Assembly: GCA_031409655.1 (NCBI GenBank)
Contig: JANNXQ010000028.1
Span: 1 to 21,654, forward strand
Origin: Chthoniobacteraceae bacterium
GTDB lineage: Bacteria; Verrucomicrobiota; Verrucomicrobiia; Chthoniobacterales; Chthoniobacteraceae
Length of the DNA stretch: 21,654 bases
Direction: 5' to 3'
In this document: piece after piece, positions 1-14,385 of the stretch
How the letters are laid out: each line of letters opens with the position of its first letter
How positions within the stretch are numbered: the stretch's first letter is position 1
Notes under the pieces: model-generated
Seen by the model: the letters and a program-made list of their open reading frames with translations, nothing else
Told to the model about the DNA's origin: nothing
Databases searched by the model: none
Program-made: the position numbers and the translations under genes

Positions 1-43
1 CGGCGAAGAAGGGCGAGCGGAGCGCGCGGCGCAGGAGTTTCAC
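1..43 (-). CDS. Probable 5' end of a gene running off the left edge (MKLLRRALRSPFFA...), coupled to the CHAT gene
   Basis: GTG at 43-41 overlaps the CHAT TGA stop (42-40) as GTGA. The frame is open to position 1. A basic N-terminus turning hydrophobic fits a signal or membrane anchor. Only 14 codons are visible. Confidence 0.5.
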   Translation of the reverse strand, partial: MKLLRRALRSPFFA

Positions 44-2394
44 AGCCAATTCCCGATGATGAGATACGGGGCCCAGAGGCACGGGTGACGGTAGCGCGGA
101 TTGGCCAGCAGCTTGCGTTGCGCGCCGCGCAGGGCCTGCGCCTTGGTCAGCTCCGGATCGGTGTGCAGCGCGGTGTAGAAGTCGTTGATGAGCTGCGTGG
201 AAGCCTCGTCACTGACAAACCAGAGCGTCGCGAAAGCGGCGCGCGCGCCCGCCTTCACGGCCACGCCCGCGAGGCCCAGCGCGGCGCGGTCGTCGCCGGC
301 CGCGGTCTGGCAGGCGCTGAGGGTGAGCAGCTCGACGGGCTGCTCGCGGAGTTGGCTCGGGCGGATCATCTGCTCGAGCTTGTCGAGCGAGAGCTTGCCA
401 TCGAAGGTGAGCACGAAGGACTTCTTCGCATCGCTGCTGAATTCGCCGTGGGAGGCGATATGCACCACGGAGAATTGCTGCTCTTTGAACTCCTTCGCCA
501 CGCTCTCGGTGAGGAACGTGCCGTTGAGCAGTTTGCTCCCTCCGTAGAGCGTATTGAGATCGCCGACTTCCTTCGCGACGAAAGGCAGCGCCGGAAAGCT
601 TTCGCCGTCCCGCTCCACGGCCTCGGAGAGTCCGCTGACCATCATCGCGATGCTCACGCGTTTGATTGCCTTTGGCTCCATGAGGCTGAGCCCGGGAGTG
701 ACGGCGATGGCATATTTTTCGACGAGAAACTTCTGGCCATCGTGGAGCGCGGCCATCGGGATGGTGCGCAGCGCGCCATCGGGCACGAAGACGAGCGTGT
801 CGATCTTCCCGCGGGCGAGCCGCGGCTCGAGGGGGCGGATGAGCCAGTCGTAGAGCTGCCAGGCTTCGGCAAGGAATTCGTTCGTCGTGCGGGTCTCGAG
901 ATGGGTGCGGAAGGCCCGGACGGTGTTGGTCAGGACGGCCGCAGTCACCGGCGCTTTCACCCGCTCGAGTCCGGCCGCGGTGCTGATGATGATCTCGGTG
1001 CGATCCGGCAGCGGCACGAGATAGAGCACCGCGGCACCTTTGGAGATTTCCTTCACGGTCGCCTCGACGGTCTTCTTTTTCGATTGCAGGAGATGCACAC
1101 AGTCGTCCTGAAAGTAGTCTTCGAGTTCCACCGCCTTGAGCAGCTCGCAGGTGTCCTGCGCTTCCCGGATGCACTGCACGACGGCCTCGGCATTGCCCAG
1201 CCCATCGGCGCGCTGGAGGAGCAGGTCCGCGAGTTCGAGGAAGACGTCGCCCACGGTTTCGCGGAAAGAGGTGCGGGCATTCGGATTCCCGAACCGGGCC
1301 GAGAGATCGGTGCGGATGCGCTCGATGTTCCCGATGGCCCGCCGGTAAGCCGCGATGGCTTCGTCGCGCCGGCCTTGCGCGCGGTCGATCCGGGCGGTCT
1401 GCCACTCCCAGCGATACAAGGCGTCGGGCGATTGCACCTTCTGTGCGAGGAAGGCCGCGCGACGCGTGAGGCGCAGCGCGTCCGCCCATTTTTTCTCCTG
1501 TTCGTAGAGATGCCCGGAGTAACCCAGCGCATAGGAAAGCGCGCGATCGTCGCCGAGCGCGGTCGCCGTGACGGCCGCTTTCTCATACGCGCGCAGGGCG
1601 TCGGCGCGCAGCCGATTGTCATGCGCCGGGGCGCGCTCGAAGAGCAGTTCCCAGTTCTTGCCCGCGCGCATCAGCGAGAAGGCCTTGTCGTGGGAATCGG
1701 GCAGCGCGAGCGCGGCGGCGAGGCCCGCGCGGTTCAAGTCGGCCGCCACCGCGAACTGCTCGCCGAGAACGGCGGTGCGGGCGGCGTTGATCGAGGCCTT
1801 CGTCGCGAGCGAGCCGTGGCCAGCCGCCTTGGCCAGCGATGCCGCCTCGCGATACGCATCCAGCGCCATGGCGAATTTCTCCTGCGCGCTCCGCAAGTTC
1901 CCGAGATCGTTCAGCACCGCCGCCACGGTCTCCTTTTCCCCAGCGGCACGCGCCACCTTGAGCGCTTCCTCCAGCGTCGGCTCCGCAGCGGCGGCGACAT
2001 GGGAAAATATCTGCAGACTCCCCAAGCGGGAGAGAGCCGCGGCCAGCCGGGCGCGGTCGCCCAGAGCCCGCGCTTCCTCGACGGCGTCGGTGGCCGCCTC
2101 GATCGCGCGGCGCTGTTCCCCGAGCGCCGCGTAGGCGCTCGCGAGATCGAGCTGGGTGTCGATCACCGCCGCCGCAGCGCTGTTTCGCTGATAGAGCACG
2201 AGCGCCGCTTGGTGCTCCGCGATCGCCTCCTCGAAGGCACCGCGTTCCGCAGCCTTCTCCGCCTTCATCCGCCGCTCGGAAGCACGTTCCTCCCAACCAG
2301 CGGAGGCCGTCGCAGAACCGACCCAGAGGGCCAGGAACGCGAGGACCAGCGGCCGCCACTTCATCGCCTGCTGAACGGTGCCAGTTTGTTGCAT
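40..2394 (-). CDS. Exported TPR + CHAT domain (caspase-like) protease
   Basis: Signal-like MKWRPLVLAFLALWVGSATASA, Ala-rich TPR helices, and CHAT motifs LVFVPDGALRTIPMAAL, VVHIASHG (His), LTLSACQT (Cys), ATLWFV and HPCLWAPYLIIGNWL. GAGGA SD precedes ATG 2394; alternative start at ATG 2364. Confidence 0.92.
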   Translation of the reverse strand: MQQTGTVQQAMKWRPLVLAFLALWVGSATASAGWEERASERRMKAEKAAERGAFEEAIAEHQAALVLYQRNSAAAAVIDTQLDLASAYAALGEQRRAIEAATDAVEEARALGDRARLAAALSRLGSLQIFSHVAAAAEPTLEEALKVARAAGEKETVAAVLNDLGNLRSAQEKFAMALDAYREAASLAKAAGHGSLATKASINAARTAVLGEQFAVAADLNRAGLAAALALPDSHDKAFSLMRAGKNWELLFERAPAHDNRLRADALRAYEKAAVTATALGDDRALSYALGYSGHLYEQEKKWADALRLTRRAAFLAQKVQSPDALYRWEWQTARIDRAQGRRDEAIAAYRRAIGNIERIRTDLSARFGNPNARTSFRETVGDVFLELADLLLQRADGLGNAEAVVQCIREAQDTCELLKAVELEDYFQDDCVHLLQSKKKTVEATVKEISKGAAVLYLVPLPDRTEIIISTAAGLERVKAPVTAAVLTNTVRAFRTHLETRTTNEFLAEAWQLYDWLIRPLEPRLARGKIDTLVFVPDGALRTIPMAALHDGQKFLVEKYAIAVTPGLSLMEPKAIKRVSIAMMVSGLSEAVERDGESFPALPFVAKEVGDLNTLYGGSKLLNGTFLTESVAKEFKEQQFSVVHIASHGEFSSDAKKSFVLTFDGKLSLDKLEQMIRPSQLREQPVELLTLSACQTAAGDDRAALGLAGVAVKAGARAAFATLWFVSDEASTQLINDFYTALHTDPELTKAQALRGAQRKLLANPRYRHPCLWAPYLIIGNWL

Positions 2395-2401
2395 TTTGTC
2401 C

Positions 2402-4882
2402 TCAGGATGCGTTCGTCACGCGCGCCAGCAGTTCGGAGCCGGTCATCCGGAAAGCCGCCTCGTGCGGACAGGAATAAACACAGCGCGGCAGCGGAGAGGA
2501 GCGCGTTCCGGCAGAATCGCAGAGGTCGCAGGTGGCGGCCTTCGGTTGCGCGATGCGCAGGCTGTGCGTGTGGCCCGCCGCCTTCGGTAGTTCGAGGGGC
2601 CGATGTTCATCCGGCGTCATGAAAATGCTGCCGTAAGGGCAATTCGTTGCGCACAAGCCGCAGCCGATGCAGTGATCTTCGATGACGATCTGCTGATGCC
2701 GGCCGCGATGGATGGAGTCCACCGGGCAGCCAGTCATGCAGTGCGGCGTCTCGCAGGAGCGGCAGGAAGTGGCGACGACGAAATTCCCGAAACGCGGCCC
2801 ATCGCGGAGCAGGCGGGTGATCGGCACGCCGTGCGATTCGACGCCGTGCTGCTGCACGCAGCCCTTGGTGCATTCGTCGCACCGCGTGCAGAGATCCAGG
2901 TCGAGCACGAGGACGCTCCGGGCCTCGTAGAGTCCCTGCTCCACGTACTGATTCATGAAGGGGTTCAGGTCGCGGGCGCTCCGCAGCCGCTCGAGGGAGG
3001 TCTCGACGATCCGGCGCCGCAGCGTCGGAAAATCGCGAATCATTTCGAGGAAATCGGCGCGATTCAGGCGCGCCAGTTCCACATGCTCCAGAGCCGTGCA
3101 GGTGGCCATGCGGACGCCGGCTGGGATCGCCCCAAGCAGTTCGGTGCCCGCGCCATCGAGCACGGCTTTGACGGCTCGGTCCACTTCGTCCGCGGTCTTG
3201 CCCGCGTCATCCGGCGAGACCGCCAGGAGGGCGATCTCGCCGAAAATCGAACCGGGCGGAAGACTGACCACGCGAGACTCACTGCCGAAGCGACGCAGCC
3301 CGACGCGGATGCGGCCGAGCCGCAACAAATAAAGACCATCGGCGGGATCCCCCTGCCGGAAGACGGTCTGGCCCGCGCCGACGCTCAGAAAGGAGAGTCG
3401 CGGTCGGAGAAATTCGATGAGCCGTCCGTACTCCGCGGTTTCGATCCCCTTGAACAAGTCCACACTCGACAAAACGACATCCAGCGAGCGCTCGCGATAG
3501 AGCCGCTCGAATTTTCCCCGCTGGCTCGGCAGCCGCATCAAACGATCGAGCACATTGCGGCGAATCTCCCAAATCTCCCCATCGTCCAGAGCCACGATGT
3601 CGGCGGATCTTGGCGAACTGCTCAGGCAGGCCATCTCGCCGACGATCACATCCGCGGGCGTCCGCTCCGCGCGAAACAAAACCTTTTCGCCCCTGCTCCG
3701 CGAGCGTCCGCCCCCAGATTGCGGCGCGCTCGCGAAGACCGACACTTCCAGTCTGCCGCGCCGAATGATGAACGCCGAATTGCCCGGATCGCCCTGCCGG
3801 CAAAGCACGTCACCCGCCTGGAATCGCCGGCGAACCGCCAGCCCTTGTTGCCAGAGGAGAAACTTCGGCGGCACGCCCGCGAAGAGCGGATCGCTGGTGA
3901 TTTCCGCGGCCGTCAAGACTTCGGATTTCCCCTGCCCGCTCGCGATTTTGACCTGCGCCACCGGTTTGAAAGTGATGGCGCTAGTCGGGCACGAGACCAT
4001 GCATTCGCCGCATTGCACGCAGCCCGATTCCGCCATCGGATCGTTCAGGTCAAAACCGATGCCCGCGCCCGCGCCCTTGCCCGTCCGGCCGATGATGTTG
4101 TTCCCCTTCACCTCATCACAGGCCCGGACGCAGCGGTCGCAGAGGATGCACGCGCTGTGATCAACGAGGAACACGGGAGACGAGGCGTCCACCGGCCGCC
4201 GCGGCGCGGCGGGAGCGTGGTTGGCAAAGGCGTCGAGCTGAAAGCGCGCGGCATCTCCCCCGCACCGCGCGTGGGCCTGCCCGAGTTCATTGAAGGCGGC
4301 GAGTTCCAGCGCGGGCGCGGGGGCGGGGGCCGGCTTCAAATGATCCGCGGCCAGCAATTCCGTGACCACTTTCACCGCCTGCCGGACGCGTTCTCCGTCC
4401 CGCCCAGGGGCGTTCATGGTGAAGACCTCCATCCCGTCTTTGACCGGATGCTGGCAGGCGGGCAGGAGCTTGCGTTCGGCGGCTCGCTTCCCGCGCTTTT
4501 GTCCGTAGATCTGCACGACACACACGCGGCAGACCGCCACCGGCGTCATGTGGGGCTGATGGCAAAGCGTGGGGATCGGGATCTTCGCTTCGTCGCCCGG
4601 CTCCCTCACGTAGAGCTTCACCGCGGCGTCGAAGATCGTGGTGTAGCGGGGCGTCGTCCGCCCTTCCCCATCGAGCACGATGTTGCCATTGGCATCGCCC
4701 AAGGGCTCCGCCAGTGGCACGGTCACGGCCTGGCCGTCGATCTGCAAGGTCACCGTCTTTCCGTAATCGGACTCCGCGGGAGCATCGAGGCGCACGAGTT
4801 GCCCGTCGATGTCGCGACTGAACAATCCCTCGTCGTCATCGCGAATGAACAGGCCCGTTTCGGGTTCGGGAGCTAGCGGCAT
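2402..4882 (-). CDS. Multi-Fe-S protein with tandem cNMP-binding domains ([2Fe-2S] + 2x[4Fe-4S] + 2x cNMP + 4x[4Fe-4S])
   Basis: IPTLCH..CRVC..LLPAC (NuoG/FdhA-type 2Fe-2S). CILCDRCVRAC and CVQCGECMVSCP. Two cNMP folds (RQGDPGNSAFIIRRG..VGEMACL..PRSA; RQGDPADGLYLLRLG..FGEIALL..VRMA). C-terminal 16-Cys DmsB-like pattern. GGAGG SD upstream; 10-bp overlap with the upstream gene. Confidence 0.9.
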   Translation of the reverse strand: MPLAPEPETGLFIRDDDEGLFSRDIDGQLVRLDAPAESDYGKTVTLQIDGQAVTVPLAEPLGDANGNIVLDGEGRTTPRYTTIFDAAVKLYVREPGDEAKIPIPTLCHQPHMTPVAVCRVCVVQIYGQKRGKRAAERKLLPACQHPVKDGMEVFTMNAPGRDGERVRQAVKVVTELLAADHLKPAPAPAPALELAAFNELGQAHARCGGDAARFQLDAFANHAPAAPRRPVDASSPVFLVDHSACILCDRCVRACDEVKGNNIIGRTGKGAGAGIGFDLNDPMAESGCVQCGECMVSCPTSAITFKPVAQVKIASGQGKSEVLTAAEITSDPLFAGVPPKFLLWQQGLAVRRRFQAGDVLCRQGDPGNSAFIIRRGRLEVSVFASAPQSGGGRSRSRGEKVLFRAERTPADVIVGEMACLSSSPRSADIVALDDGEIWEIRRNVLDRLMRLPSQRGKFERLYRERSLDVVLSSVDLFKGIETAEYGRLIEFLRPRLSFLSVGAGQTVFRQGDPADGLYLLRLGRIRVGLRRFGSESRVVSLPPGSIFGEIALLAVSPDDAGKTADEVDRAVKAVLDGAGTELLGAIPAGVRMATCTALEHVELARLNRADFLEMIRDFPTLRRRIVETSLERLRSARDLNPFMNQYVEQGLYEARSVLVLDLDLCTRCDECTKGCVQQHGVESHGVPITRLLRDGPRFGNFVVATSCRSCETPHCMTGCPVDSIHRGRHQQIVIEDHCIGCGLCATNCPYGSIFMTPDEHRPLELPKAAGHTHSLRIAQPKAATCDLCDSAGTRSSPLPRCVYSCPHEAAFRMTGSELLARVTNAS

Positions 4883-6948
4883 GACACATCCTCCCGGGTT
4901 TCGTCACGGACGGCATTTTCCGCCGCCCCCAAATGCTGCGCCAGGTCCTCTGGGAAAAAGCGGACCACCGTGCGCAGCGGCACCGGCACGGAGCGTCCGA
5001 GCCCGCAGATGGAAGCCAGCTCGATGACCGTGCCCATCTCCTGGACTAGGGGAAGGATCTCCTCCTGCCAACGAGCGGCGCTGATGCGACCTTCGAGCAG
5101 GTTTCTGCCGAGGTCCGCCAGCTTCTGCGAACCCAGCCGGCAGGGCACACATTTTCCGCAGGACTCCTGGCGGAAAAACTCGTTGGCATTCGCGGCCTGC
5201 TCCAGCATGTCGCGCCCCTCGGCATAGACCACCATGCCCGCGCCGAGCGCTTGCGTCGGGCTCAGCGCGCGGAAGACATTCAGCTCCAGTTCGAGATCGA
5301 GAATGTCGAGTTCGCCAGCCGCCGGATCGAAGCCCCGGCGGGCCGCGAGCGCCAGCCAGGTCTCATTGCTCGTGTGGTTTTTCGGCAGGCCACTCGCGAC
5401 CGTGAGTTTCGCCGGGAGAAATCCGCCTGATGGCCCGGAAGGCGCGAGCGCCTTCAAAGGCCGATCACCGACCATCCCCTGGCAGTAGCCTTCGCCGAAG
5501 AGCAGCTCGCGCACGGTGAGCCCCATCGGCACCTCATAGACTCCCGGCCGCTGCACATCGCCCGAGATCGAAAAGAACCGCCGCCCTTTCCACCCGTTCA
5601 CGCCCTGATCGGCGTAAGCCTGGCCGCCACGAAGTAAGATAAACGGCACCCAGATGAAGGTCTCCACATTACTAACGAGCGTCGGGAGATCTTGCAGTCC
5701 ATTGGTCTCGAGCTTCGGGGGCAAATTCCGTGGCTCACCCCGGCGGTCGGACATCGCCTCAATGAGCGCACTCTGCTCTCCGCAAATGTAGCCCCCGGGG
5801 CTGACGAACACCGAGATGGGAAAAGGCCGGCCCAGCACCGAAGCGTTTTCCCCGCAGATTCCCAACTGTTCGGCGCGCCGGATTTCCTCCCGGCACGCGG
5901 CGATCTGCTCGCTGTATTCGTGGCGGATGTAAATGAAGCCCTGGGTGGCTTCGGTGATCAGCCCAGCCAGGATCACCCCTTCGATGATGAGATGCGGTGT
6001 CCGGAGCAGGAGTTCGCGATCCTTGAAAGTGCCGGGCTCACTCTCGTCTCCATTCACCACGATGAAGGCCCGGTCGTCGGCCTGACGGCCGCGCGCCGTG
6101 CGCACCGCATCGCGCACATCGCGCCATTTCTGGATCGCCGGGATACCCGCGCCGCCCATGCCGCGGAGATCGGCCTGCTTGAGTTCCTCCAGCAAGCCGT
6201 CCGACCAGCCGCCGAGGTGCGCGCCCTTGGCCCAATCGTCGTCGAGCTGCCAGCAGCGCACGGCCTGCGCAACCGCGGCATCCATGGCGACTTCCACCCG
6301 CATCTGCCGGATCGCCCCAAACCGGAACTGTTCCGTGTTCTCGCGGCGCCAATCCGACCGCTCCGCCAGCAACTCCATCGCCGCCGCCAACGAGGCGTCG
6401 CGCACGGCGACCGCGTTTCGGACCGCCGCATAATCCGACGGACCTTCATAAGTCTCGACCATCCAAGCCGCCATCGTCGGCGCCAGATCCCCATCCCGAT
6501 CCGCCGGCGGGAGCAGACCCTGAAGACAACCCGCGGCCACCCCATCCAACTCGCCAAACGACCGCCCGAGGTAATAGTGGTCGTGCTCCAAACCTTTGAC
6601 CGAAAAACAAGCTGCCGGCGCCCGGTCACAGCGGCCCTGGCAAGACACGCTCTCGACCGCGACTTCGTCCCCTTCCAGAGACCCGGCCCGCGCGCGAAGC
6701 TCCGCCGAACCCGCCATGGAGCACGCCATATCCCGGCAAATCCGCAGGACGATCCGCCGCGCTGGCGACAAACGAAAATGCGGAAAGAAACTCGCCACTT
6801 CCTGAATGCGGTAGAGGGGCACACCCGATTCCTGCGCATACCGCTGCAAGGCGCTGCGCTCAAGATGCCCATACTCCTCCTGAATCCGCTGCAAAGTGGG
6901 GACGAGAACCGAACGGTAGAAATTTTCCTTCGTTGCGCTCATCTTCAC
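4873..6948 (-). CDS. NuoE-NuoF (HoxF-like) fused NAD(P)H-dependent flavoprotein/diaphorase
   Basis: NuoE part: VASFFPHF and CRDMAC...SCQGRCDRAP. NuoF part: LRGMGGAG, VNGDESEPGTFKDR, YICGEQSAL, NVET, SLBB region, and ESCGKCVPCRLG...SICGLG (N3 cluster). Start is GTG 6948 or ATG 6942. Confidence 0.9.
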   Translation of the reverse strand: MKMSATKENFYRSVLVPTLQRIQEEYGHLERSALQRYAQESGVPLYRIQEVASFFPHFRLSPARRIVLRICRDMACSMAGSAELRARAGSLEGDEVAVESVSCQGRCDRAPAACFSVKGLEHDHYYLGRSFGELDGVAAGCLQGLLPPADRDGDLAPTMAAWMVETYEGPSDYAAVRNAVAVRDASLAAAMELLAERSDWRRENTEQFRFGAIRQMRVEVAMDAAVAQAVRCWQLDDDWAKGAHLGGWSDGLLEELKQADLRGMGGAGIPAIQKWRDVRDAVRTARGRQADDRAFIVVNGDESEPGTFKDRELLLRTPHLIIEGVILAGLITEATQGFIYIRHEYSEQIAACREEIRRAEQLGICGENASVLGRPFPISVFVSPGGYICGEQSALIEAMSDRRGEPRNLPPKLETNGLQDLPTLVSNVETFIWVPFILLRGGQAYADQGVNGWKGRRFFSISGDVQRPGVYEVPMGLTVRELLFGEGYCQGMVGDRPLKALAPSGPSGGFLPAKLTVASGLPKNHTSNETWLALAARRGFDPAAGELDILDLELELNVFRALSPTQALGAGMVVYAEGRDMLEQAANANEFFRQESCGKCVPCRLGSQKLADLGRNLLEGRISAARWQEEILPLVQEMGTVIELASICGLGRSVPVPLRTVVRFFPEDLAQHLGAAENAVRDETREDVSCR

Positions 6949-7651: not shown

Positions 7652-7794
7652 CTAGTCTTAGCCCCGGGCTTTCACGGCCTCCCTCTTCTTCTCCTTCTTC
7701 ATCTCCTCCTCCTTCTTCCGACAATCCACCGGAAGCAGAAGGAGATGAAGTAGGAGAAGAAGAAGATTTGAGAAAGTCCCGGGCTACGAGCTAG
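7652..7794. repeat. Long imperfect inverted repeat (about 140 nt hairpin) in the pnp leader
   Basis: Left arm 7652-7720 (CTAGTCTTAGCCCCGGGCTTTC...TCTTCTTCTCCTTCTTCATCTCCT...CTTCCG), loop ACAATCCAC, right arm 7730-7794 (CGGAAG...AGGAGATGAAGTAGGAGAAGAAGA...GAAAGTCCCGGGCTACGAGCTAG). Confidence 0.85.
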
Positions 7795-10042: not shown

Positions 10043-10253
10043 GCGCGAATATGGCGAGGTCATCTCCGGCTCAGGCGGAGGAAGGCCGCGAGGGCCGGGA
10101 GAGGTGCTGGGGAAGCAGACCGGGTAGCCGCTGTGAAATCGATCATCACCATGCCATCGTCAATCTCCACCATTCCCTTGCGCCGCCCGATTGCCTATCT
10201 ATCACCTCCCACAGCTTACTCGTATTTCCGAACGAGCCACTCCTCCTCATCCC

Positions 10254-11504
10254 GTGCTTACCCTCGAAAAATTCTCCATCGGTGTCGGCGACCGTTTCGC
10301 CCACCAAGCCAAAGCCCAGCTCCGCGCCTGCCAGCTCCTCGCCCGCGATGGCGCGGAGGTCGTGCCGGTCTGGAATAAGTCGAACCGCGAACATACCTTC
10401 GTGGGCTCGGAGCCAGAATCGGTGCTCGTCGCCGCGCGCGACGCGGTGCAGGCGCTCGGCTGGAAAGGCGGCTGGCACGTGGATGCCGATCACATCCGGC
10501 TCGAAACCGTGGATCGCTTTCTCCCGCACTCCGATTTTTTCACCCTCGATGTCGCGGATTCCATCGGCCAGCCAGCGGCTCCCGCGGACGTGCAGGCTTT
10601 CGTGGATCGGCATCCCGAACTCCTCGGAATGATCTCGATCCCGCAGATCGCGACACCCTTCACCACCACCCGCGCTGAGATCGAGCGCATCGCCGGGAAG
10701 TTCCTTCTGGCCGTGCAGGATGCAGGGAAGATCTACCGCCACATCGCGGAGAAGAAGGGCGCGGACCACTTGATCGCCGAGGTCTCGATGGATGAAACGG
10801 ACACGCCGCAGACACCGCCGGAGCTGCTGGTGATCCTCGCCGCGCTCGCCGACGAAAAAGTGCCCGTACAGACCATCGCGCCGAAGTTCACCGGTCGCTT
10901 CAACAAGGGCGTCGATTACGTCGGTGACCTCGCGCAGTTCGAACGGGAATTTCACGACGATCTCGCGGTCATCGCCCACGCCATTGCCCGCTACGGACTC
11001 CCGGCGAATCTCAAGCTCAGCGTCCACAGCGGGAGCGACAAATTTTCCCTCTACCCGATCATCCGGCGCACGCTACCGAAATTCGGCGCGGGTCTGCATC
11101 TGAAGACGGCGGGCACGACGTGGCTCGAGGAACTCATCGGCCTCGCCGAAGCCGGAGGGGAAGGTCTCGCGCTCGCGCAGGAGATCTACGCCGGAGCGAT
11201 CGGTCATGTGGATGAATTCTGCGCGCCCTACGCCTCGGTGATCGACATCGACAAAGCGCAGCTCCCGACCGCGGACGAAGTCGCCGGCTGGACCAGCGAC
11301 CAATACACCGGCGCGCTCCGCCACGATCAAAAGAACCCGCGCTTCAACGCCAGCTTCCGGCAACTCCTCCATGTGTCCTTCAAACTTGCGGCCAAGAAAG
11401 GCCAGCGCTACCTCGACCTCCTCCTCGCCAACGAAGAGATCGTCGGGAAGAACGTGACGGAAAACCTCTACGTGCGGCACCTGAAGCCGCTCTTTATCGG
11501 ATAG
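10254..11504 (+). CDS. uxaE: Tagaturonate/fructuronate epimerase family protein (UxaE)
   Basis: FSIGVGDRF, HVDADH, EVSMDET, APKFTGRFNKGVDY, KLSVHSGSDKFS and HLKTAGTTWLEE motifs. GTG 10254 is preferred over the ORF-track start at 10191. Confidence 0.85.
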   Translation: MLTLEKFSIGVGDRFAHQAKAQLRACQLLARDGAEVVPVWNKSNREHTFVGSEPESVLVAARDAVQALGWKGGWHVDADHIRLETVDRFLPHSDFFTLDVADSIGQPAAPADVQAFVDRHPELLGMISIPQIATPFTTTRAEIERIAGKFLLAVQDAGKIYRHIAEKKGADHLIAEVSMDETDTPQTPPELLVILAALADEKVPVQTIAPKFTGRFNKGVDYVGDLAQFEREFHDDLAVIAHAIARYGLPANLKLSVHSGSDKFSLYPIIRRTLPKFGAGLHLKTAGTTWLEELIGLAEAGGEGLALAQEIYAGAIGHVDEFCAPYASVIDIDKAQLPTADEVAGWTSDQYTGALRHDQKNPRFNASFRQLLHVSFKLAAKKGQRYLDLLLANEEIVGKNVTENLYVRHLKPLFIG

Positions 11505-11506
11505 CG

Positions 11507-11550
11507 AATTTTGAAAACACAGAGATGCAGAGACGCGGAGGACGCAGAGA
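11507..11550 (+). repeat. Left inverted-repeat arm of the GxxExxY cassette (tandem ~8-9 nt CGCAGAGA-like units)
   Basis: AATTTTGAAAACACAGAGATGCAGAGACGCGGAGGACGCAGAGA, a near reverse complement of 11978-12019. Confidence 0.88.
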
Positions 11551-11556
11551 AGAGAC

Positions 11557-11976
11557 ATGCATGAGAATGAACTTTCGCGGTTGATCATCGGGGCCGCGAT
11601 CGAAGTGCATCGCGAAGCAGGACCGGGACTGATCGAAAAGCCTTACGAGGAAGCGATGTGCCATGAGTTGAATCTGCGTGGGTGGAAGTTCACTCGCCAG
11701 CGGGCAGTGCCGTTCGTTTATAAGGGAATCACGCTCTCCACAGACTTGCGCACGGACCTCATCGTCGCGGACAAGGTGATCGTGGACTTAAAAGCGAAAG
11801 ATCAAATCAGCGCCATCGACAAAATGAAGATGCTCACCTACCTGCGCTTTCACAATCTGCGGCTCGGACTGATCATCAACTTCCACGTCGAGTTGCTCAA
11901 AGATGGAGTTCATCGAGTCGTCAACAACCTCCTGCCTCCTCCCCCGCCCGAAACACCAGCAAACTTCCACGCCTGA
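11557..11976 (+). CDS. GxxExxY protein (PD-(D/E)XK nuclease-like)
   Basis: IIGAAIEVHREAGPGLIEKPYEEAM (GxxExxY), RTDLIVADKVIVDLKA (D...DxK) and YLR...GLIINF. 139 aa with a Pro-rich tail; visibly more A/T-rich than its neighbours. Confidence 0.93.
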   Translation: MHENELSRLIIGAAIEVHREAGPGLIEKPYEEAMCHELNLRGWKFTRQRAVPFVYKGITLSTDLRTDLIVADKVIVDLKAKDQISAIDKMKMLTYLRFHNLRLGLIINFHVELLKDGVHRVVNNLLPPPPPETPANFHA

Positions 11977-11977
11977 A

Positions 11978-12019
11978 TCTCTGCGCTCCTCTGCGCCTCT
12001 GCATCTCTGCGTTAAAATT
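11978..12019 (-). repeat. Right inverted-repeat arm of the GxxExxY cassette
   Basis: TCTCTGCGCTCCTCTGCGCCTCTGCATCTCTGCGTTAAAATT, starting 1 nt after the GxxExxY stop. Confidence 0.88.
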
Positions 12020-12036
12020 TTACCGATTGTACCGAA

Positions 12037-12891
12037 GTGAAATCCGCCATCACCGTCTCCCTCGTCCCGCAAGCCGCTGGCGGTCCATTCGTTTTTTGGA
12101 ACGGACTGGCTGACGCTTTTGAACAGGCGGCGGCGTTCGGTTTCGATGCGGTGGAGATTTTTCCGCCGGGCGCTGAGGCTCTCGACACGACCGCGATTCG
12201 GGCGCTGGCGGCGAAGCATCGCCTCGCGATCGCTGCGGTCGGCACAGGTGGCGGATGGGTGATCCATAAATTGACGCTCACCCATGCCGAACCATCGATC
12301 CGCGCGAACGCCCGGGAGTTCATCCGCGGCCTCATCGACAAAGCCGCGGCGCTCGATACGCCGGCGATCATCGGCTCGATGCAGGGACGATGGGAAGGTG
12401 GCGTGACCCGCGAACAGGCCCTCACCTGGCTGGGAGAAGCACTCGAGGATCTCGGCGCGCACGCGGCAAAGCTTGGGCAGCACTTGCTCTACGAGCCACT
12501 GAACCGCTACGAGACGAATCTCCTCCACCGCACGCCGGATGCCGCCGCCTGGCTGCGCACCCTCGACACGGACAATGTCCGCATCCTCTCCGACCTCTTT
12601 CACATGAACATTGAAGAGCCCGATATCGCGACCTCGCTCCGCGAAGCGGGCAGCCTTGTCGGCCACGTTCACTTTTCCGACTCAAACCGGCGGGCGATCG
12701 GGCTCGGGCATACGGACGTGGCGCCGATCATCGGGGCGCTGAGGGATATCGATTACACTGGCTACCTCTCGGCAGAGATCGTCCCGCTGCCGGATGCGGC
12801 CACGGCGGCACGGAAGACGATCGAGAGCTTCCAGCACTTCACGACGGGCGAACATCGAACCTCGAACGTCGAACATCGAACCTCGAAATGA
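12037..12891 (+). CDS. Sugar isomerase/epimerase, xylose-isomerase-like TIM barrel (D-tagatose 3-epimerase / IolO-like)
   Basis: GFDAVEI, IIGSMQG, YEPLNRYET, DLFHMNIEE, HVHFSDSNRR and YLSAE metal-binding motifs. GTG start; the last 13 aa are repeat-encoded. Confidence 0.88.
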   Translation: MKSAITVSLVPQAAGGPFVFWNGLADAFEQAAAFGFDAVEIFPPGAEALDTTAIRALAAKHRLAIAAVGTGGGWVIHKLTLTHAEPSIRANAREFIRGLIDKAAALDTPAIIGSMQGRWEGGVTREQALTWLGEALEDLGAHAAKLGQHLLYEPLNRYETNLLHRTPDAAAWLRTLDTDNVRILSDLFHMNIEEPDIATSLREAGSLVGHVHFSDSNRRAIGLGHTDVAPIIGALRDIDYTGYLSAEIVPLPDAATAARKTIESFQHFTTGEHRTSNVEHRTSK

Positions 12892-12952
12892 TTGGGCTGC
12901 CGCGCTGTTTCCTTGTTCGAGGTTCAGTGTTCGAAGTTCGATGTTCGATGTT
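12849..12952. repeat. Inverted heptamer tandem-repeat hairpin, (CGAACNT)n...(NGTTCGA)n
   Basis: Left 12849-12887: CGAACAT CGAACCT CGAACGT CGAACAT CGAACCT CGAA. Spacer 26 nt. Right 12914-12952: TGTTCGA GGTTCAG TGTTCGA AGTTCGA TGTTCGA TGTT. Confidence 0.9.
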
Positions 12953-13418: not shown

Positions 13419-13449
13419 GAAATCCGAAATCCGAAATCCGAAACTCGAA
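13419..13449 (+). repeat. Solo heptamer tandem array (GAAATCC)3 GAAACTC GAA
   Basis: Fills almost the whole gap between the mutarotase stop (13413) and the AKR ATG (13450). No inverted partner was seen. Confidence 0.85.
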
Positions 13450-14385
13450 ATGTTACCCACCCGCCGCCTCGGTCGCACCGATCTCCAACTTCCCATCCTC
13501 AGCTTCGGCGCTTCATCGCTCGGGCAGGAATTTCGCAGCGTCAAACTCGATGAAGCCCTCGGTAGCGTCCGCGCGGCGCTCGATGCAGGGCTCAACTTCA
13601 TCGACACCTCGCCCTTCTACGGACGCGGTATGAGCGAAGTCCTGCTCGGTATCGCGCTCCGCGGCATCCCGCGCGAGAGCTACATGCTTTGCACCAAAGT
13701 GGGGCGCTACGATCTGCAGCATTTTGACTTCAGCGCGAAGCGCATGGCGGAAAGCGTGGAAGTCTCGCTGCACCGCCTCGGCACTGAGTATCTCGACATC
13801 GTGCTCTGCCACGACATCGAGTTCGTGCCGCTCCAGCAAATCGTGGATGAGACGATTCCCGCGCTCCGCAAAATCCAGCAGCAGGGCAAGGTGCGCTACA
13901 TCGGCTTCAGCGGATATCCCATGAAGATCTTCCGCACGATCCTCGACCAGACCCATGTGGACTGCGTGCTGAGCTACAATCAATACACGCTGCAAAACAC
14001 GCGCTTCGCCGACGAGATCATCCCGTATCTGGAGTTGAAAGGCGTAGGCGTGATGAATGCCGGCCCCTTCAGCGCCCGCCTGCTCACCAATGCTCCCCTC
14101 CCCGCGTGGCTCAAGGAACCCGAGGAAGTGAAGGCCGCCGCACGCAAGGCCGCGGAACTCTGCGAAAAGGAGGGTTCGGACATCGCCAAGCTCGCGCTGC
14201 AATTCTGCATCGGGAATGCGGACATCACGACGACCATCGCCGGGAGCGCCAATCCCGAGAACGTGAAGAAGTGGGCCGAATGGGCCGCCGAACCGCTCGA
14301 CCGCAAACTGCTCGCGAAAGTGGAGAAGATCTTCGAGCCCGTGAAAAACATCGGCCACCCCGAAGGCCTGCCCGAAAACAACTAA
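13450..14385 (+). CDS. Aldo/keto reductase, L-galactose dehydrogenase-like
   Basis: RRLGRTDL..LSFGASSLG, GLNFIDTSPFYG, LCTKVGRY, SLHRLGTEYLDIVLCHDIEF and GKVRYIGFSGYP. Confidence 0.85.
   Translation: MLPTRRLGRTDLQLPILSFGASSLGQEFRSVKLDEALGSVRAALDAGLNFIDTSPFYGRGMSEVLLGIALRGIPRESYMLCTKVGRYDLQHFDFSAKRMAESVEVSLHRLGTEYLDIVLCHDIEFVPLQQIVDETIPALRKIQQQGKVRYIGFSGYPMKIFRTILDQTHVDCVLSYNQYTLQNTRFADEIIPYLELKGVGVMNAGPFSARLLTNAPLPAWLKEPEEVKAAARKAAELCEKEGSDIAKLALQFCIGNADITTTIAGSANPENVKKWAEWAAEPLDRKLLAKVEKIFEPVKNIGHPEGLPENN

Follow-up and report, generated by a model that had tools for sequence, protein, structure and literature searches.

The GxxExxY gene between uxaE and a sugar phosphate isomerase/epimerase gene in the window (the whole stretch of 21,654 nt analyzed here) is enclosed by two inverted arrays of tandem words. 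The cassette represents a promoter-poor unit of gene plus arms, here in an old and intact copy; the unit has occupied several junctions in this bacterial family and has gene-less derivatives. This distribution suggests that the enzyme likely recognizes its own repeats and helps to spread them. Among the explanations considered, a DNA-level partnership of repeat and enzyme fits best, similar to REPIN/RAYT or Ssn/SRM systems and involving a PD-(D/E)XK protein, and we hold it with somewhat better than even confidence. The initial annotation had proposed a minimal selfish or mobile unit, and this part of it is borne out by empty orthologous sites, armed copies elsewhere, repeated change of locus and gene-less derivatives that track the nuclease across genomes. 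The unit is probably tied to its own PD-(D/E)XK protein.

Architecture of the cassette and its encoded protein

The encoded protein matches TIGR04256 with 127.8 bits (cut-off 35, E 2.5e-37) and PF13366 with 121.8 bits (cut-off 22, E 2.6e-35), in agreement with the first description of a GxxExxY gene in a sugar operon between uxaE and the epimerase. PF13366 is the sole Pfam match. No transposase family is matched, and that description had likewise reported no transposase. Residues G24, E27 and Y30 are conserved in homologues. Asp67 and Lys79 are invariant in 73 homologues and Asp77 is present in at least 90%; D67 and the D77-x-K79 pair are the putative catalytic residues of the PD-(D/E)XK fold in the structure model (pLDDT 88.8). 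Cas4, lambda exonuclease, Hjc and restriction enzymes head the fold matches, with scores that are middling throughout (Foldseek: best E 5e-3; VIA: best Z 7.4, rmsd 3.4–3.7 over 97–101 aligned residues) and do not tell a DNA substrate from an RNA substrate. The function of PDDEXK_3 is listed as 'Unknown' in the accessible part of PMC3424549. The features of the locus are listed in Table 1.

Table 1. Position and composition of the cassette, its host genes and the neighboring gene-less element in the window
Feature	Position	Strand	Description
Left arm	11507..11550	+	A/T-rich end, then four CGCAGAG-type words at 11518, 11526, 11534 and 11543
GxxExxY gene	11557..11976	+	139 aa, PD-(D/E)XK fold, motif G24-x-x-E27-x-x-Y30
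Right arm	11978..12019	-	Left arm inverted: four words, outer end A/T-rich
uxaE host gene (tagaturonate epimerase family PF16257)	10191..11504	+	True start may be 10254
Sugar phosphate isomerase/epimerase host gene	12037..12891	+	PF01261; IolO-like match below cut-off
Gene-less element, CGAACAT 7-mer arms	12849..12952	.	Same design as the cassette, different word

The stop codon of uxaE lies 2 nt upstream of the cassette. The arms end 6 nt before the ATG and begin again 1 nt after the stop of the GxxExxY gene, both distances being exactly those first reported. When one arm is aligned with the reverse complement of the other, 38 of 45 columns are identical, 3 are mismatches and 4 contain gaps; the alignment score of 53 is reached by none of 5000 shuffles, the maximum of which is 29. 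The four words of each arm follow the consensus C/T-R-C-R-GAG at a pitch of 8–10 nt. GC content is 54% in the cassette gene, compared with 61–64% in the neighboring genes. One contig from four DNA sequencing runs covers the cassette with zero differences, and a sequencing-run contig of a relative (about 91% identity) likewise has the cassette beside the epimerase. Joints in the runs that skip the cassette were discarded, having fewer than 30 letters on one side and probably coming from other organisms or repeats.

The motif AATTTT had been noted at both ends. The left AATTTT pairs with AAAATT at 12014–12019, within the inverted repeat, and the second AATTTT is present because AAAATTTT is self-complementary. 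The motif is missing from the orthologous cassettes of two relatives (G003 and G121) and is therefore not a target-site duplication. No such duplication is seen at the cassette, which is an old copy, in comparison with the orthologous junctions of relatives.

A promoter scan finds one weak site within the GxxExxY gene and none upstream of it. The arm duplex as RNA has a predicted energy of -60.9 kcal/mol and encloses the whole gene in the MFE fold, so the gene could loop out on one stem, as suggested at the outset. The stability of the 541-nt cassette region overall is not unusual (z -1.0). As for sequestration of the ribosome site by the stem, this region is predicted to be largely paired even when the right arm is removed. 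The Rfam scan gives no match over the cassette, which is located between two protein genes and not in an rRNA gene.

Arrays of this kind occur at three junctions of this sugar operon. The epimerase reading frame enters the gene-less element downstream and stops inside it, which gives the protein a repeat-encoded tail; Rfam returns three sub-threshold miRNA-hairpin matches for this element. A lone 7-mer array lies at 13419–13451 between a fucU-like gene and an aldo-keto reductase. Elsewhere in the window, an inverted TCT/AGA-rich array lies at 7684–7766 between rpsO and pnp, and at 40–6948 translations read by eye place a TPR/CHAT-like gene beside Fe-S plus cyclic-nucleotide-binding-like and NuoEF-like flavoprotein genes.

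Inheritance and relocation of the cassette

We compared 29 orthologous uxaE-epimerase junctions, 24 from the best 30 epimerase loci (the other 6 have no uxaE upstream and were left out) and 5 more found by a uxaE search; one that was kept, G101, is cut at the left arm. The cassette is present at 4 of the 29 (this genome, G003, G121 and G101), and the same arms stand without the gene at 2 others (G099 and G077). Ten junctions have other hairpins, five of them tandem-word arrays with different words and five of other types. The remaining 13 are bare, with the epimerase abutting or overlapping uxaE. Empty orthologous sites therefore exist and the cassette is not fixed at this locus. The 19-nt spacer that was expected to remain after removal of the cassette is correct as arithmetic, but it does not describe the real empty sites, which range from an overlapping stop/start up to 16 nt. 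The states are scattered over the host-gene tree; one faulty long row (G092) makes its root meaningless, so the scatter of states alone is used.

Between this genome and G003, dS of the GxxExxY gene is 0.96 and that of the epimerase is 1.03. This match shows that the copy is old and not recently mobile, and it rules out a recent transposition of this copy. The dN/dS of the gene is about 0.05–0.12, indicating purifying selection. By these sequence comparisons the insertion is an old one that some lineages have preserved intact and others have lost or replaced.

One alternative is a domesticated host nuclease, where the unit spread long ago and is now kept for a host role at repeat sites, for example as an Ssn-like single-strand nuclease in recombination or DNA uptake, or in tuning operon expression. 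Consistent with this, the gene has been inherited vertically across distances of genus level at a dN/dS of about 0.1, each genome has one or few copies, and there is no match in 50,697 phage records and 8 weak matches in plasmids. A precedent is SsnA, which has a repeat-gene-repeat layout and modulates transformation according to the available text of PMC11893778. Against it stand the frequent loss or replacement at one junction (the 4 scattered cassettes among 29), the deletion derivatives and the placement among unrelated operons, and domestication by itself leaves relocation unexplained. We regard it as unlikely.

GxxExxY genes are present in 110 of 151 genomes of the Chthoniobacteraceae family. 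For a wider comparison, 143 loci were gathered: 52 from genome contigs, the 30 best hits of the family, a further 60 family hits chosen to cover the range of identity, and the paralogue. Removal of 8 with no hit, 12 partial and 13 duplicates left 110. Inverted flanks scoring at least 34 are found at 79 of the 101 loci with flanks long enough, compared with 12 of 978 genes of similar size from this genome, so the flanking arrays first noticed here extend to most other copies. In a quick tree of the 110 rows, the query clade (39 rows from seven phyla, SH-aLRT 97) has CGCAGAG in 33. Among the 71 other rows this word occurs in 3, and the rest have words that include CGCAAAG, CACGAAG, CGCAGAT, CACGAAT and CAGGATT. 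Since the arms are linked to the gene, some covariation of word and protein is expected from co-inheritance. The genome of the window has only 2 GxxExxY genes. The second, on contig C84, is 27% identical and has CAGGATT-type palindromes on both sides. A second architecture, in which two copies of a complete palindrome flank the gene in direct orientation, is seen at L100 and L001/L207 and could recombine to a solo palindrome. The left and right arms of one cassette resemble each other only slightly more than arms taken from separate cassettes do (best match in 5 of 16). On this weak signal, concerted evolution between the arms was set aside. A search for specificity residues by mutual information was also discarded, as clade markers alone emerged.

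The 25 Verrucomicrobiota rows of the clade lie at 7 loci: uxaE-epimerase, DUF58-BatA, MoxR-DUF58, gltB-gltD, trxB and two others. In the tree, the 4 uxaE copies cluster with 8 DUF58-BatA copies (99/98), apart from 7 other DUF58-BatA copies. That the 15 DUF58-BatA copies together form a single clade is rejected (p-AU 0.0014, for a group named after the first tree was seen). This topology points to a likely move from DUF58-BatA to uxaE-epimerase together with both arms, in a tree whose root is not fixed. At 30 DUF58 loci, the cassette is present at 10, arms alone at 3, arms at a contig edge at 2, a different hairpin at 1, and 8 are bare; at the remaining 6 there is no BatA downstream or the locus ends there. 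Chthoniobacter flavus has its cassette at DUF58-BatA. In this genome gltB-gltD is without a cassette and trxB has a different hairpin, while relatives have the cassette at both, and one MoxR-DUF58 junction holds a four-helix-bundle cassette where relatives have a GxxExxY cassette. Unrelated hairpin types and different GxxExxY clades recur at the uxaE-epimerase, DUF58-BatA and trxB junctions (L115–L144, L210–L238, L110, L113 and L146). These recurrently filled junctions represent insertion hot spots or element-by-element replacement.

Gene-less derivatives and the level of action

Two DUF58 loci illustrate the origin of gene-less forms by internal deletion: G082 and G091 both retain the two arms and the gene tail, and G091 also keeps the gene start. 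This genome has about 25 gene-less two-arm CGCAGAG copies (26 counted, 20 paired by script and 6 by eye, two of which are probably one duplicated locus). Their spacers are homologous in 16 of 25 tested, and apart from chance matches of 12–13 nt they contain no gene remnants. A young set of 8 copies at 7 unrelated loci is 85–94% identical to the copy on contig C187, and their conserved ends extend about 25 nt past the arms, closing with a short inverted motif. The homologous spacers and the 8 near-identical copies indicate that the gene-less units were copied as units. No target-site duplication is found at the 8 young copies. One of them is split by a frameshifted IS110-family transposase remnant (L205:1393–2680, contig C29:4892–6179 of this genome), and at C108:6295–6578 a CAGGATT-type hairpin element is nested within a CGCAGAG element.

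Repeat abundance follows the nuclease clade. Of 25 genomes with the clade, 22 have at least 10 matches to a two-word pattern, as do 15 of 126 without it (151 genomes, clade presence being a best E of at most 1e-40; many genomes are incomplete and related, so that kin are not independent). Outside genus g41, 9 of 10 genomes with the clade are repeat-rich, against 7 of 112 without; inside g41 the difference is smaller, at 13 of 15 with the clade and 8 of 14 without.

A de novo scan of this genome gives 281 inverted tandem-array elements, among which CGAACAT is the commonest word. On contig C144 this word brackets a four-helix-bundle (23S_rRNA_IVP, PF05635) gene. The genome has 10 such IVP genes, and the scan places 6 of them inside 6–7-mer arms. 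IVP genes in inverted 6–7-mer arrays at mRNA gene junctions are seen on contigs C12, C23, C47, C63, C144, C184 and C239, several of them in MoxR/DUF58 operons, the junction type used by GxxExxY cassettes in relatives. IVP proteins are not known nucleases, and their presence in the same design may mean that a mobilizer outside the cassette is shared. For this reason the RNA-processing and passive-capture explanations both gain.

An RNA-level element would act through pairing of the arms in mRNA, with RNase III or the protein cutting the stem so that the gene is excised or silenced as in a 23S rRNA intervening sequence; its spread might pass via RNA. The predicted stem around the gene and the shared design of the IVP genes, down to the junctions in this genome, agree with such a role. 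Of 68 cassettes with callable genes on either side, 58 point the same way as both neighbors and 5 are antisense to both; this co-orientation fits reliance on a host promoter or an RNA role alike. Gene-less 8–10-mer elements at co-oriented junctions show 33 G-U and 16 A-C mismatches (p 0.02, uncorrected, one of seven tests), but the sense-strand arm mismatches in 62 cassettes are 50 G-U and 71 A-C, and those in 133 co-oriented 6–7-mer elements are 127 G-U and 130 A-C. Gene-less elements occur at 44 of 619 divergent, 152 of 3224 co-oriented and 21 of 674 convergent junctions, and are thus no rarer at divergent junctions than at co-oriented ones. The antisense cassettes L158, L182, L161 and L169 have inverted arms as well. 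This lack of G-U excess, together with the divergent and convergent elements and the armed antisense cassettes, favors a DNA-level role. Pairing by itself would not demand the conservation of the exact word that is seen across phyla. Moreover, an mRNA from which a piece is excised is not re-ligated, and cutting would therefore split the operon message. The RNase III-excised mRNA intervening sequence, the other idea of the initial annotation, thus fares poorly, and we consider an RNA-level element distinctly improbable, even less probable than domestication.

Alternatively, the GxxExxY and IVP genes may be passengers captured between the arms of hairpins that another enzyme (RAYT or IS110) or palindrome recombination spreads. 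Several unrelated hairpin types do replace one another at the same junctions, Y1 transposases (13 matches) and IS110 (4 matches) are present in the genome, and the IS110 remnant within one gene-less copy and the ability of genes between direct palindromes (L100 and the C84 paralogue) to collapse by recombination also point this way. The cassette locus, however, is not among the Y1_Tnp matches, and the 11 Y1 genes examined carry their own, different hairpins. CGCAGAG arms are absent from these 11 of the 13 Y1 matches and from the 3 IS110 copies inspected, and RAYT and IS110 were rejected as their owner. Moreover, the word follows the GxxExxY clade and not the host, with two clades and two words in this genome, and repeat abundance follows the cognate clade. 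Passive capture is in our judgment the least probable of these explanations.

For the DNA-level partnership, the pathway would be as follows. The protein would be made by read-through of the host operon and would recognize the words at their 8–9-nt pitch, probably on arms in single-stranded form or extruded as a hairpin or a cruciform. It would nick or cut DNA at the recognized arms, and host repair would then copy the DNA bounded by the arms, the gene included or not, into stop/start junctions that tolerate insertion. Binding and cutting of CGCAGAG arrays would drive their spread as RAYT does for REPINs. Weighing against this partnership are the age of the present copy and the low number of GxxExxY genes in the genome, the relatedness of the genomes compared, the linkage of arms to gene, the IVP genes in the same design, the IS110 remnant and the conserved ends beyond the arms in the young gene-less set, the modest likeness of paired arms and the middling fold scores. 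A strand-transfer step is not expected from a PD-(D/E)XK fold, which fits the absence of target-site duplications.

Relation to known systems and significance

The cassette appears to work like RAYT/REPIN and Ssn/SRM systems and to fall outside both classes by its enzyme. As in RAYT/REPIN systems, an enzyme gene lies between inverted repeats, gene-less inverted doublets are dispersed extragenically, the repeat sequence covaries with the enzyme and its abundance follows the cognate gene (PMC2817692 and PMC3116915, accessible text). In the same text the enzyme is an HUH/Y1 tyrosine transposase and the repeat a short palindrome, whereas here a PD-(D/E)XK protein is found and the arms repeat a non-palindromic 7-mer in tandem. 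The cassette gene is under strong purifying selection, with dN not above that of its neighbor, while rayt genes are reported there to evolve faster than their neighbors. Ssn/SRM systems, as presented in the available portion of Chenal et al. 2025 (PMC11893778), also have a small single-domain nuclease between cognate repeats that are dispersed genome-wide, and the repeat has been shown to be the target of the enzyme. These nucleases are GIY-YIG, in contrast to the PD-(D/E)XK assignment through PF13366/TIGR04256 here. An SRM alone is a 20–50-nt hairpin, while the cassette hairpin needs two arms and can enclose the gene.

The 23S rRNA intervening sequences of Coxiella and Leptospira share a small ORF within terminal inverted repeats and an RNA stem (PMC4990558, in the part available), and in this genome PF05635 genes are found in tandem-word arms at mRNA gene junctions. 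The cassette lies outside rRNA, has an ORF with a nuclease fold and not a four-helix bundle, and its stem is without G-U bias; it resembles the rRNA intervening sequences in shape only. In insertion sequences and MITEs, autonomous and non-autonomous forms share terminal inverted repeats and the non-autonomous forms arise by internal deletion. The cassette and its gene-less forms likewise share arms and include internal-deletion derivatives, but there is no DDE, HUH, serine or DEDD transposase in the cassette, the copies are old and few, and no duplication is found. Cyanobacterial short tandem repeat elements may be related. A search that mainly covered the main text of openly available papers gave no description of such arms around GxxExxY or 23S_rRNA_IVP genes, and one may exist elsewhere.

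A broader reading, to which we give slightly less than even weight, is that these cassettes form an undescribed, widespread class of minimal mobile DNA. In this class a single-domain PD-(D/E)XK nuclease would read its own inverted arms made of tandem words, one word per GxxExxY clade, would relocate from one operon junction to another without a transposase or target duplication and would mobilize gene-less hairpins in trans, with the proteins of 23S rRNA intervening sequences as sister cargo.

With the arms described here, the common GxxExxY proteins gain a specific candidate substrate, and the two paralogues with two words in one genome provide a natural specificity-swap test. The partnership would explain a large class of intergenic hairpins, with 281 inverted tandem-array elements in this genome, and it bears on the old question of the origin of ORF-bearing rRNA intervening sequences. 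If the GxxExxY proteins are word-specific nucleases, they would offer, as the Ssn family does, a library of compact enzymes whose targets are diverse.
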